Positions 30,725-33,836 of a DNA stretch of 64,000 nt are shown here, in pieces (position 1 is the first letter of the stretch; each line of letters opens with the position of its first letter). The translations under genes and the position numbers were made by a program. Where the stretch lies: the sequence record NC_094493.1; one strand, written 5' to 3'. The notes beneath the pieces were generated by a model. That model was not told the origin of the DNA and ran no database searches. It saw only the letters and a program-made list of their open reading frames with translations. The DNA comes from a phage.

Positions 30725-30782
30725 TGTTTAACAAAGAGCGGGAGGGGTAGTACAACCGCCTCCCCTTTAAGGAGAACTGTAT

Positions 30783-33206
30783 ATGAGTATGTGGTCTTTC
30801 GATCTGGAGGCCTCCGGGCTTTTGGAAGATCTAGATCTTTATTATCACTGCGGTCTGTTTAAAGAGCTGAATAAGAACCGTTTTATGCTGTTCCTTCCTC
30901 TAAATGACCGCACACACTACTCCGAGGAGGATATAGAGAAGGCTAAGAACTTTATTCTGGCAAAGAAAACTCTTTATAAAGATTTTGAAGTTCGCATAGC
31001 AGATTTTTCGGAGTTGGAAGGTTGGCTTACAGGCAATTCCGACTGGTCACCAACAGCTTTGAACTGCCATAACTGCTACAGTTATGACTTTATGCTGATG
31101 GAAAGATTATCCGGTATTCATTTTGACATGTTCCGTGATCCTAAATGCATGGGTACTATCAACGACCACCAGGTTAACCTGTTTGATACGTTGGCGATGA
31201 GTCGAATCTTGTGGCCTGATCGCCCTTTACCAAAAGGTTGTCCGGACTCTGTATTCAACCCGGTCACTAAGAAAATGCAGCCTGTTGGTCCTCACGGCCT
31301 TATGGCATGGGGCTATGCTCTTGGTAACCAGAAAGTTCAAATTGATGACTGGCGCGATCTTCCGTTGTGGAAGTATGTGGATCGTGTATTTGAGGACGTT
31401 ATCATCCAGGAGCTGCTCTGGAAAGAACTGGTAGCGGAATCAAAAGGTGTATTCTACGGCAAGTCTGACATGCAGAACTTTATGTACGATCCTGCCAAAG
31501 AGAAGCCGAAAGGGTTCAAGAAGATCACCTGGAAGAACGCATTACGCCGAGGCATGCTGCAGCACTTCCTGATGGAGCTGCAGGCCCGTCAGGGTGTGTA
31601 TTTCGACATAGATGGAGCTATTGCTTTACGTGACCGTTGCGATGCGTGGATGAAAGAAATCGCTGATCGTGTTGAACCACAACTGCCTTTAAAAGAGCTG
31701 TCAATGTCTCAGCGGCCCAAGTTCCCTGAAAAGCCGTTTAACCAAGACGGGACAATCTCTAATAATGGTTGGAAATGGTTAAAAGATAAGCTTGGCTATC
31801 CTGTAGACATGAGCGCTCTAGAGTTCAAAGCCCCGCCTAAGAGAGCATTTACCTCCACAGGAGATGTCAGTAAGATGGGGATAAAATGGTGTGAAGAGAT
31901 GGGCTGCAAAGACCCCGATAAGATGGCTGATTTCTTGAGAGGCTATATTAAGGGCACCTCAACACCACAACCTTTACCTAAAGAGCTAATGGATCAGGCA
32001 ATAAGCGATCTGCAGCAGAAGCGAATGCCTGACTGCAAGATACCTATGAAAATCAGCAATCAGGACGACATTAAGCGATACCTGATCAGTGCTGGTTGGC
32101 TTCCGACAATGTGGAGAACTAAGGATGTAACTAAAGACAGCAAGAAGAAAGCTCTACCTGATGCAGATGTTGATGCACGAGTATATGCATACATGGACGA
32201 GCTTTTAGAGTCAGAGTATTGTGACCTAATTATCAACTTCTGGAACAAAACTGATGCTAAGTTTCAGACAACAGTGCACAAGTTCCGAAGCTTTCCTAAC
32301 TCCGAAAGGATTAAAAAGGAAGTATTCGGGAAAATACGTAGAAAAGCTAGGGCACTTATTACTTCTCCGCAACTGAAAGATACGTTTGGACACCTATGTC
32401 CGAATCTTGAAAAATTGAACGGAGAGATGGCTAAGGATATCGTCTTGTGGTTATCCTTGCGAAACCGCAGATCGGTCCTTGATCCAATCAAGGAGGATAA
32501 GGTTGATACTGGTCTTCTTAATCACCCACGCTTGAAGATTGACCATAAGCTTCCTGCTAAAAGCTCCGGATTAACAAACACTTCCAGACAGAAACACAGC
32601 ATTTGTGCAAACATGCCTAAACCCTCTCCTAAAGTGGTTATGGGTAAGGAGATGCGTAGCTTGTGGGGTGTTCCTCCTGGATACTTTGAGATCGGTATTG
32701 ACGGGTCCAACTTAGAGCAGCTTATCGGGGCTTGGGGTGCCTTTGAGTTCGACAACGGCTTGTATTATGATGTTGTAAGTAACGGGGACGCACACCAAAA
32801 CAATGCTGAGGCATATACAAAAGTAGCAGGCAGAGAGGTGTCTCGTAACGACGGTAAACCTATCACGTATGGGGTTATGTACGGGGCACAAAAAGATAAA
32901 GTTGCAGATATGCTGGACATCTCTCCAGAGTTGGGACAAAGGGTAATCGATGCACTCTGGGATGCCAACCCTGGTCTTAAGGGGCGCAAAGAGGATCTGG
33001 AGAAATTCTGGGAAGCAACAGGTAAGAAGTTTATCTACTCTTTTGATGGTCATGCTATCTGGACCCGATCTAAACACTCTTTACTTAATGCATACCAACA
33101 GAATGGTGGTGCATCGCTGTGTGACTTGGTTGGGATACTTATGCACCACCAAATGGTGAAGCGTGGGTGGTACGATGAAGGTGTTCGTCGTATTATTTAT
33201 TACCAT
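30783..33206 (+). CDS. family A (T7-like) DNA polymerase, exon 1
   Basis: 3'-5' exonuclease Exo I FDLEASG; motif A IDGSNLEQL; motif B RNDGKPITYGVMYGAQ; reading frame stops 1 codon after ...IIYYH, exactly where motif C (HDE) should continue. Confidence 0.85.
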
Positions 33207-33482
33207 AAATAACATTGTGGCTTCATAGAGTAATCTATGTCGAATAACCTCTTTAACTGCGGGAAGCCTAAACCTTATGGCAAGGTAATCCGCAACGAAG
33301 CGCTCAAAAGAGCGAACGCTCAGAGGCCATTCCGAAAGGAAGTAGACCAGCAAGTGCGGTCGAAATGGGAGGATTCCTGTGGTTGCTTATCATAGGAATA
33401 TGAGATGGTCCGATCCTACGTGAAAACGTATGGCTATGCACGTAATGGTGCGGGGTAGCTTAACGACCTACCTGAACTATTG
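33207..33482 (+). ncRNA. putative group I self-splicing intron (no ORF) interrupting the DNA polymerase
   Basis: 276 nt between ...YYH and DEYQLQV...; 5' exon ends in U and intervening sequence ends in G; P-like AACTGCGGGAAG (33255), Q-like AATCCGCAACG (33287), R-like GTAGACCAG (33342) and S-like GAGATGGTCC (33402) elements; candidate guide GTGG at 33217. Confidence 0.7.
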
Positions 33483-33836
33483 GATGAGTACCAACTTCAA
33501 GTGCCTGACACACCGAAGTATAAGACTGTGTACACCTTCGACACAATTGAAGAACTGGAAGCATTTAAGGCAGAGCAGGAAGCCAAACTTCATGTGTTCG
33601 ACGGTCATAAGTACAAAAAGGCACGCAAGGATGAGGACGGAAACGAAGTGGTTGACAGAGACGGAAACACGGTGTACGATCCTATCCTGAACGATAACGG
33701 AAAGCTTGAACTTATCTGGAGCCCTGTGGGTGAAATGGTGGTGCATTGCTTCTGGCAAGCTTCTAAAATGATGGGAGTCCCGTTCCAGATCACAGGTGAA
33801 TACTTGTGTGGTAGTAACTGGGGTGATTGTCACTAA
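33483..33836 (+). CDS. family A DNA polymerase, exon 2 (motif C to C-terminus)
   Basis: Begins DEYQLQV (completing H|DE motif C) and ends ...GSNWGDCH with a C-terminal His as in T7 gp5 (from memory); no RBS or ATG of its own. Confidence 0.75.
   Translation, partial: DEYQLQVPDTPKYKTVYTFDTIEELEAFKAEQEAKLHVFDGHKYKKARKDEDGNEVVDRDGNTVYDPILNDNGKLELIWSPVGEMVVHCFWQASKMMGVPFQITGEYLCGSNWGDCH

Follow-up and report, generated by a model that had tools for sequence, protein, structure and literature searches.

A 276-nt group I intron between the His and Asp codons of motif C within the gene for the DNA polymerase of an rV5-like Escherichia coli phage

The window (the whole stretch of DNA that was analysed, 64,000 nt) comes from a Vequintavirus, an rV5-like E. 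coli phage, and carries a DNA polymerase gene in two exons separated by a structured insert:

30783..33206, + strand: DNA polymerase exon 1 (ORF and script; alignment with T7 gp5; start as in the joined CDS of LL12 and RudolfGeigy)
33207..33482, + strand: group I intron of 276 nt, no homing-endonuclease ORF, IA2-type architecture (RF00028, intron-less allele, covariation, MFE fold)
33483..33836, + strand: DNA polymerase exon 2 (ORF and script; alignment with T7 gp5; contiguous with exon 1 in intron-less relatives)

Exon 1 spans 2424 nt, or 808 whole codons, opens with an ATG (30783) that is preceded by the Shine-Dalgarno sequence AAGGAG, and ends in ...RRIIYYH, as the sequence read-out, the ORF list and the script concordantly show. 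It contains Exo I (FDLEASG, residue 6), motif A (IDGSNLEQL, residue 639) and motif B (RNDGKPITYGVMYGAQ, residue 688), all present as quoted in the original prediction, together with the His of motif C. If the RNA is not spliced, the exon 1 frame continues into AAA TAA and stops one codon on, at 33212. Exon 2 comprises 117 codons and a stop, begins with DEYQLQV, the first two residues of which are the Asp-Glu of motif C, and ends in ...NWGDCH. Joining both exons by script gives an ORF of 925 aa with zero internal stops in which H|DE of motif C is restored, and the predicted junction-spanning peptide of the spliced polymerase is ...IIYYHDEYQLQVPDTPK. The ORF list, the script and the T7 gp5 alignment agree with the prediction of a polymerase split inside motif C, at H|DE, by 276 nt. 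The alignment of the 925-aa product with T7 gp5 (phmmer E 3e-16, BLASTP E 2e-19), which had been proposed as a check, is unbroken at the junction (query residues 633-813, T7 residues 468-658, ...yyHDEyql / wvHDEiqv) and takes in the regions equivalent to D475, K522, Y526 and HDE as well as the N-terminal DxE, while the C-terminus, also predicted to resemble that of T7 gp5, reads G.NW..CH in both proteins. These matches support a polymerase of family A with T7 gp5 as its closest solved relative. However, the predicted "T7-like" character amounts to a distant family A kinship, with ~25% identity over palm and fingers and a Pfam DNA_pol_A (PF00476) score of 31.8 bits, marginally under the 34.3 cut-off.

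The segment 33207..33482 had been predicted to be a group I intron, and the covariance-model search bore this out with a match to Rfam RF00028 at 33197..33432 that covers model positions 1-253 of 253 and, at 64.7 bits (E 4e-14), clears the gathering score of 50 bits, well above anything that chance would give. It is the sole Rfam match of the window, even at E<0.1; no other introns or structured RNAs (Rfam, E<0.1) and no tRNAs were found in the 64 kb. The base before the intron, at the end of exon 1, is T (T33206) and the last base of the intron is G (G33482), as the original prediction had it. Both boundaries are fixed to the base because close relatives have an uninterrupted ...YYHDEYQ... 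allele, and comparison of the window with typing phage 14, whose allele lacks the intron, leaves them exact and unambiguous. That allele, ...TATTACCAT|GA(C/T)GA..., encodes ...YYHDEYQLQV... with 100% identity and occurs in typing phage 14 and at least nine others among the relatives listed. On this sequence evidence, the insert is confirmed as a genuine group I intron between the His and Asp of motif C. Its predicted elements are the following:

33203..33220, + strand: P1, CCAU plus intron AA (33203..33208) with guide UUGUGG (33215..33220) (Rfam alignment, helix map)
33224..33239, + strand: P2 hairpin, 6 bp, GUAA loop (compensatory changes at 6/6 pairs)
33248..33253 with 33367..33372, + strand: P3, CCUCUU with GGGAGG (100% of cells paired; MFE fold agrees)
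33258..33263 with 33289..33294, + strand: P4, UGCGGG with UCCGCA, around P5 at 33266..33286 (Rfam, covariation for P4, MFE fold)
33296..33318, + strand: P6 and P6a, the latter a short hairpin, CGCUC-AAAA-GAGCG (location of the HNH gene in relatives)
33325..33329 with 33406..33410, + strand: P7, GGCCA with UGGUC, in a pseudoknot with P3 (100% of cells paired)
33330..33361, + strand: P7.1 (UUCC-GAAA-GGAA), GUA linker at 33342..33344 and P7.2 at 33345..33361 (helix map, MFE fold)
33374..33398, + strand: P8 hairpin, 9 bp (Rfam, MFE fold; other hairpins there in homologues)
33415..33433, 33438..33451 and 33454..33472, + strand: P9, P9.1 and P9.2 (covariation, MFE fold)
33482..33486, + strand: omega-G (33482) and exon 2 GAUG (33483..33486) (sequence reading)

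The fold was compared across 13 homologous introns located at one codon junction in Vequintavirus, Avunavirus, Certrevirus, Seunavirus and Vibrio phages, aligned with MAFFT. Standard pairs were found in 99.3% of 683 cells, and compensatory changes on both sides in 25 of the 53 pairs; none of 500 shuffles scored as high, and slid controls paired at 32-41%. P5, P6a, P7.1 and P8 were excluded from the covariation count, being length-variable hairpins that MAFFT cannot align, and draw their support from the single-sequence fold and from alternative hairpins at those places in the homologues. The MFE fold (z = -2.79) recovers P1, P2, P3, P4, P5, P6a, P7.1, P7.2, P8, P9, P9.1 and P9.2. That the core helices are all intact and kept by compensatory changes shows that the RNA fold is under selection.

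P1 is invariant in 13/13 homologues, with a U.G wobble (U33206 with G33217) at the 5′ splice site. P3 and P7 are 100% paired and covary, P3 through both-side changes at 3 pairs and P7 through a C-G to U-A compensatory change. The guanosine-binding site of group I introns generally sits in P7. Compensatory changes are also seen in P9 (5 pairs), P9.1 (1) and P9.2 (3), and P6 of the window intron opposes A to C at a position that is G.U in relatives. Of the elements in the original prediction, P, Q and S correctly correspond to the 5′ strand of P4, the 3′ strand of P4 and the 3′ strand of P7, respectively, and the GTGG guide to the IGS; its R element, GACCA (33345..33349), was misplaced, since that sequence makes up the 5′ half of P7.2 and P7 has GGCCA (33325..33329) as its 5′ strand. 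If GACCA is paired with P7 3′ instead, 12/13 homologues show one non-standard pair, and there is zero covariation. The omega-G (G33482) is invariant in all homologues. A putative 4-bp P10, read from the sequence and not from covariation, could form between exon 2 GAUG and CAUU at 33213..33216; the +3 base of exon 2 is U in all intron-bearing alleles and C in the one intron-less allele that was examined.

Subgroup IA2 is recognised by two additional helices, P7.1 and P7.2, which lie between P7 and P3′ and are joined by G-U-A (PMC3428280). The window intron has UUCCGAAAGGAA, GUA and GACCAGCAAGUGCGGUC at 33330..33361, where P7.2 covaries at 3 pairs and P7.1, too variable to align, is backed by the fold. 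By its predicted helices it belongs to IA2.

That phage genes for family A polymerases can contain group I introns has been established since the case of SPO1 (1990). Group IA2 introns of the T7-like phages PhiI and W31 were reportedly described by Bonocora and Shub in 2004 (J Bacteriol 186:8153). According to PMC3428280, which cites Bonocora & Shub 2004, these PhiI/W31 introns are self-splicing and occupy E. coli Pol I site 881 of the family A polymerase gene; they are of subgroup IA2, and the endonuclease-bearing forms have the ORF in P6a (PMC3428280). Site 881 corresponds to the junction between His and Asp of motif C and is common to the window and PhiI/W31 introns, which are matched by site and subgroup. 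However, the PhiI and W31 introns encode the HNH endonuclease I-TslI whereas the window intron encodes none, and the hosts are unrelated, T7-like podoviruses on one side and the 137-kb myovirus of the window on the other. The introns of SPO1, SP82, Bastille and Pf-WMP3 (site 674), of phiL7 (site 676) and of the Bastillevirinae too differ from the window intron in their site, and no sequence similarity to polymerase introns of the SPO1/SP82/Bastille/Pf-WMP3/phiL7 type was detectable by blastn.

Following the general group I mechanism, the pre-mRNA would fold so that the guide UUGUGG pairs with CCAU at the end of exon 1, and an external guanosine bound in P7 would attack 3′ of U33206. P10 would then align exon 2 (GAUG) on the guide as the terminal G33482 moves into the G site, and exon ligation would produce the predicted junction ...TATTACCAT|GATGAGTAC..., i.e. 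...UACCAU|GAUGAG..., in codons ...UAC CAU|GAU GAG..., restoring His-Asp-Glu of motif C and the 925-aa polymerase. Unspliced RNA would lead to termination one intron codon in (AAA UAA) and to a polymerase without the catalytic Asp. We infer these catalytic steps, and in vivo splicing of the 276-nt allele, from the structure and from a relative: the homologous HNH-bearing intron of phage CB7, at the same site (CB7_50, L014 1501..2187) and 75% identical to the window intron, was found to be spliced by RT-PCR and Sanger sequencing (PMC7344957). No literature on splicing of the 276-nt allele was found. It is highly probable, given the structure and the spliced relative, that the intron is excised from the pre-mRNA to yield the 925-aa polymerase.

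It could be argued that the intron is a splicing-dead relic and that the polymerase is made as two polypeptides, one ending in ...YYHK and the other being exon 2 started at TTG 33480, which assemble after translation. The mobE-split NrdA of Aeromonas phage Aeh1, which reportedly assembles in this way, is a precedent cited in PMC7344957, and in CB7 an HNH-containing insertion in the NAPRTase gene was not seen to be spliced (PMC7344957). The original prediction was right that no Shine-Dalgarno precedes exon 2, but an in-frame TTG does, one codon upstream at 33480, in place of the ATG that was noted as missing; it would formally permit separate translation, is taken as the start by gene callers, and exon 2 is called a separate CDS in navn, FFH2 and rV5. 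Nonetheless, no Shine-Dalgarno is found in the sequence upstream of this TTG, the break would part the His from the catalytic Asp of motif C, the intact core helices and their compensatory changes reflect selection on the RNA fold, and the homologous CB7 intron at this very site splices (PMC7344957), all of which makes two separate polypeptides very improbable. Hardly any credence can be given to the view that the 276 nt are no intron at all but arose as an artefact of assembly, or represent a small mobile DNA element or an in-frame insertion such as an intein. What could suggest it is the bare interruption of the ORF and nothing else, and it is already refuted by the Rfam match, the number of genomes and the covariation. 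Independent sequencing has yielded the identical 276 nt at this position in at least 22 genomes; the frame stops after one codon and cannot be that of an intein; the match to RF00028 is significant and full-length; and Pfam finds no match at E<=0.01 for the longest intron ORF (52 aa).

Among the genomes with the identical 276 nt, rV5 (NC_011041), LL12 (MH491969), RudolfGeigy (MZ501102), MaxTheCat, navn and O157 typing phage 5 share gene and position with the window at 100% intron identity; in the published genomes of this kind the exons differ from those of the window by 2-3% and the intron nowhere. Besides rV5, LL12 and RudolfGeigy, roughly 20 further records have the intron at 100% identity. 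Other alleles of the site are as follows:

FFH2: 843 nt, HNH in P6a
CB7 and phiTE: 687 nt
CR9, SSE121 and LTH01: ~771 nt
PVP-SE1: 919 nt, with LAGLIDADG
JEP1 and JLBYU08: 328 and 329 nt, ORF-less

Judging from these sequences, the element is optional at the His|Asp site of the Vequintavirinae polymerase, and its alleles form a natural series: the site is empty, or it holds an intron from one of two ORF-less lineages, or one with an HNH gene of either of two families in P6a, or one whose P7.1 contains a LAGLIDADG gene. In the sample, ~47% of alleles are empty, 18% are the 276-nt intron and 32% are HNH-bearing forms. The Vequintavirinae alleles share with the window the insertion point TACCAT|GATGA, the IGS and the core helices. 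Over its 5′ 51 nt the window intron has 98% identity with the FFH2 type, and over its 3′ 49 nt it has 94-100% identity with the FFH2 and JEP1 types, whereas its P4-P8 centre reaches only 35-48% column identity with the FFH2/JEP1 type and in P9 it does not differ from the Seunavirus/Certrevirus type. The window intron is therefore a mosaic, with FFH2/JEP1-like ends, a divergent centre and a P9 of another type. Unlike the HNH-bearing alleles, it has no endonuclease gene and its P6a hairpin is short.

The intron is real but already known, as the identical sequence is annotated as an intron in public records: LL12 and RudolfGeigy both record the CDS as two joined pieces, and the GenBank note of LL12 reads "intron-interrupted gene". 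Little is therefore new, the insertion site having been described in 2004 and the exact intron sequence annotated in GenBank. However, the rV5 reference record and genome paper miss the polymerase intron and give a 775-aa gp228 with separate "hypothetical proteins"; the rV5 genome paper mentions introns only for the terminase, and what the BASEL paper says on annotating intron boundaries stays general. The value lies in curation, since RefSeq rV5 and many relatives show a truncated "DNA polymerase" and spurious "hypothetical proteins", exon 2 often being miscalled a separate gene, where the correct annotation would be one spliced polymerase of 925 aa. Naive phylogenies from the polymerase region are also to be avoided, given the presence/absence polymorphism.

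As predicted, the intron has no homing-endonuclease ORF; its counterparts in relatives harbour HNH or LAGLIDADG genes. Its longest ORF (33237..33395) is not conserved, as ORFs in the divergent ORF-less homologues are only shorter and differently placed. A degraded endonuclease gene was also sought by tblastn with 9 HNH and 1 LAGLIDADG proteins of relatives, and nothing in the window matched at E<0.7. Judged by an encoded endonuclease, the window intron is not a homing intron and, lacking one, would be an immobile passenger on its own; its spread or loss probably proceeds via recombination during mixed infections. Mobilisation in trans, by the HNH endonuclease of a co-infecting phage or by a free-standing HNH beside the polymerase gene, is conceivable because the mosaic ORF-less intron has termini matching the HNH-bearing allele, although we regard it as doubtful. 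If true, the locus would offer a tractable model, in lytic phages, for the cycle by which introns and endonucleases are gained and lost and for "collaborative homing". A free-standing HNH gene adjoins the polymerase gene in navn, FFH2 and Vibrio phage K470.

The polymerase gene lies in two pieces:

30783..33206, + strand: polymerase exon 1, ATG at 30783 to the His codon CAT at 33204..33206, 808 codons, AAGGAG ahead of the start
33483..33836, + strand: polymerase exon 2, in frame, beginning GAT GAG (Asp-Glu) at 33483, 117 codons, ending ...NWGDCH, stop at 33834..33836

Past the CAT (His) of exon 1 the unspliced frame reads AAA TAA and stops, and joining the exons gives a 925-aa protein with zero internal stops, the layout described by the original prediction (a stop one codon past His, a 276-nt gap and resumption at DEYQLQV). 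The Exo I, motif A and motif B sequences it had named are all present in the product, as FDLEASG (residue 6), IDGSNLEQL (639) and RNDGKPITYGVMYGAQ (688), and motif C is completed as YYH/DEY (806-811; slashes mark the junction). The nearest solved structure to this product is T7 gp5 (phmmer E 3e-16; BLASTP E 2e-19), and the proposed alignment of the two, when run, spanned motifs A and B and was continuous across the junction at HDE (query ...iiyyHDEyql, T7 ...mawvHDEiqv, T7 residues 468-658), the N-terminal DxE (Exo I) also being aligned. The supposed likeness of the C-termini holds for G.NW..CH, common to both, but the match at these extreme ends is weak. We take H881, D882 and E883 of E. coli Pol I to be the His-Asp-Glu of motif C, which is consistent with the T7 alignment. 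Because Pfam DNA_pol_A scores slightly below its cut-off (31.8 against 34.3 bits, E 9e-8), 'T7-like' is best understood as meaning a divergent member of polymerase family A.

The 276-nt insert is a group I intron on four lines of evidence; established here are its group I fold, the geometry of its splice sites, the precise exon junction and its homology to an intron that is spliced in vivo. The covariance-model search that had been proposed matched Rfam Intron_gpI (RF00028) over the full-length model at 33197..33432 (64.7 bits, gathering score 50, E 4e-14), the sole Rfam match in the whole 64-kb window even at E<0.1. The minimum free energy fold of 33200..33489 independently gives P1, P2, P3, P4, P5, P6a, P7.1, P7.2, P8, P9, P9.1 and P9.2, at -88.4 kcal/mol against -74.6 ± 5.0 in shuffles (z = -2.79). 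The 5' splice site falls directly after U33206, which forms a U33206.G33217 wobble with the guide UUGUGG, and the last intron base is G33482; the U, the terminal G and the candidate guide GTGG (the internal guide sequence) had thus been rightly called. Exon 2 GAUG could also form a 4-bp P10 with CAUU (33213..33216). The predicted P (AACTGCGGGAAG), Q (AATCCGCAACG) and S (AGATGGTCC) elements are the P4 5', P4 3' and P7 3' strands, but R was placed on the wrong strand: GACCA (33345..33349) is the 5' strand of P7.2, and as the P7 5' strand it pairs with P7 3' only in the window, one position failing in 12 of 13 sequences. The feature is real and was read correctly, apart from this one misassigned helix strand. 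P7.1 (UUCC-GAAA-GGAA) and P7.2 are linked by GUA, an arrangement given as a subgroup IA2 criterion in the Pf-WMP3 paper (PMC3428280).

Very near relatives (typing phage 14, nomine, bov11CS3, ECO111 5-P and others) are intron-less, and in tblastn a 116-aa junction-spanning peptide matched them as one unbroken 348-nt piece, 100% identical. Typing phage 14 reads ...TATTACCAT/GACGAATAT... with no bases between, and since T stands against G at one boundary and A against G at the other, the insertion cannot slide; by this comparison the intron is exactly 33207..33482. Exon 2 position +3 is T in all intron-bearing alleles examined (the U pairs with A33214 in P10; window 33483..33494 against excerpt L003 3169..3180) and C in the single empty allele compared, and silent differences at +6, +9 and +12 are common to intron-less and FFH2-type alleles.

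Over the polymerase region the window shares 96-98% identity with Vequintavirus (rV5-like) coliphages, most of all with navn (97.8%), and homologous introns occupy the same codon junction in several groups.

Introns at the same codon junction
Other Vequintavirus: JEP1, 328 nt; JLBYU08, 329 nt; FFH2, 843 nt
Avunavirus: 18-1-2, 317 nt
Certrevirus: phiTE and CB7, 687 nt; CR9, 772 nt
Seunavirus: SSE121, 771 nt; PVP-SE1, 919 nt
LTH01: 772 nt
Vibrio phages: K470, 254 nt; 10AMN, 253 nt

Thirteen sequences were aligned (MAFFT) after excision of endonuclease ORFs, and P1, P2, P3, P4, P6, P7, P7.2, P9, P9.1 and P9.2 were counted on the structure of the window sequence. Standard pairs fill 99.3% of 683 cells, a share biased upwards by deriving the structure from one aligned sequence, which leaves compensatory counts unaffected; the five unpaired cells are all in P4, from MAFFT misplacing a bulge column. 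Both sides change in 25 of 53 pairs, the observed values were reached by none of 500 column shuffles, and sliding the 3' partners by 1-3 columns left 32-41% pairing and 0-6 compensatory pairs. The window and SSE121 both have GGCCA/UGGUC as P7; the other homologues have GACUA/UAGUC. The comparison supports a P3/P7 pseudoknot and points clearly to an RNA fold under purifying and compensatory selection. By the general group I mechanism, guanosine would attack after U33206, P10 would align exon 2, omega-G would mediate exon ligation, and the spliced mRNA would yield the 925-aa polymerase; translation of unspliced RNA would end at 33212, so that the product would lack motif C's catalytic Asp-Glu. 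Exon 2, predicted to have neither a ribosome-binding site nor an ATG, indeed lacks the former but has a formal start in an in-frame TTG at 33480, from which the polymerase could be made as two polypeptides; this is unlikely, because no ribosome-binding site serves that TTG and because of the selection on the fold.

In GenBank LL12 (MH491969) the identical sequence is a two-piece CDS noted as 'intron-interrupted gene; intron splice site predicted based on homology', and the BASEL phage RudolfGeigy record has a joined CDS at the same gene, comparative genomics having been used in its paper to set intron boundaries. The rV5 genome paper missed the polymerase intron, described a 775-aa polymerase and treated introns only for the terminase gene; RefSeq rV5 (NC_011041) still places two 'hypothetical proteins' (rv5_gp222, rv5_gp221) within or across the intron. 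In that record (L001 1501..4555, corresponding to 30783..33836 of the window) the polymerase is divided among ORF 229 (81 nt), ORF 228 (775 aa) and ORF 225; its match is 3055 nt long where the window has 3054 nt, which suggests that the record has a 1-nt indel close to the 5' end of the gene. The HNH-containing intron CB7_50 was shown to splice by RT-PCR and Sanger sequencing (PMC7344957); its junction is exactly that of the window (L014 1501..2187, flanks TATTACCAT/GATGAATAC). The T7-like phages PhiI and W31 have self-splicing IA2 introns at polymerase site 881, E. coli Pol I numbering (PMC3428280). From the LL12 and RudolfGeigy records, CB7 splicing and site 881 of PhiI and W31, the insertion site, intron kind and exact sequence are therefore all already known; ORF-less group I introns in phages are unremarkable, and the window intron is real, already documented and of an ordinary type.

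Copies 100% identical to the 276-nt intron occur in rV5, LL12, RudolfGeigy, MaxTheCat, navn, O157 typing phage 5 and others, and 22 records in total reach at least 99% identity. An 800-nt probe spanning the junction matched 116 phage records, and an evenly spaced sample of 60 was surveyed.

Junction states among 60 records
Intron-less: 28
276-nt intron (the window's own): 11
328/329-nt ORF-less intron: 2
842/843-nt HNH-bearing intron: 19

Segment identities show the window allele to be a mosaic. The 51 nt at its 5' end share 98% identity with the FFH2 type and the 49 nt at its 3' end 94-100% with the FFH2 and JEP1 types; P4 to P8 share only 35-48% column identity with the FFH2/JEP1 types, and P9 matches the Seunavirus/Certrevirus type at 100%. 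Under the name 'Campylobacter phage' (MG065635-MG065690, host C. jejuni) stand sixteen records that share 94-98% identity with E. coli Vequintavirus phages across the polymerase gene and have the same intron alleles; their stated host seems questionable. Partial matches of the intron (intron positions in brackets), probably to related introns in other genes, occur inside the Av-05 terminase large subunit gene (positions 8-148, 73%; H178), in phiKZ-like Pseudomonas phages (231-270, P9.1-P9.2, 90%; H187-H190) and in Bacillus phage Goe21 (15-60, 91%; H186).

The P6a of the FFH2, CR9, SSE121 and LTH01 introns holds a related HNH gene (54-78% identity), that of CB7 and phiTE a different HNH with 55% identity to the one in SSE121's upstream intron, and PVP-SE1 has a LAGLIDADG gene in P7.1 (compare PVP-SE1 L017 960..1878, FFH2 L002 3925..4767 and CB7 L014 1501..2187). 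Different endonucleases in different helices point to independent invasions of one intron. No homologue of the relatives' HNH or LAGLIDADG endonucleases was found in the window, which bears out the predicted absence of a homing-endonuclease ORF from its intron. A free-standing 244-aa HNH gene occupies the primase/helicase-polymerase interval of navn (L008 346..1080) and FFH2 (L002 770..1504), and the spacer is 58 nt only, with no HNH gene, in the window (30725..30782), rV5, LL12 and typing phage 14; among the small number of genomes compared, presence of this gene does not follow intron state. A second HNH-containing intron lies ~112-117 codons before the His/Asp site in relatives from Certrevirus, Seunavirus and Avunavirus (CB7 L014 458..1170; SSE121 L015 170..837; also in L011 and L013), by position in or near motif B (window ...KPITYGVMYG...); the window is without it. 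The 254-nt ORF-less homologue of Vibrio phage K470 (L006 1501..1754) lies at the same junction, and a free-standing HNH gene (L006 1994..2641), 3' of the polymerase gene, starts 240 nt past the intron 3' end, a layout that resembles published cases of 'collaborative homing'.
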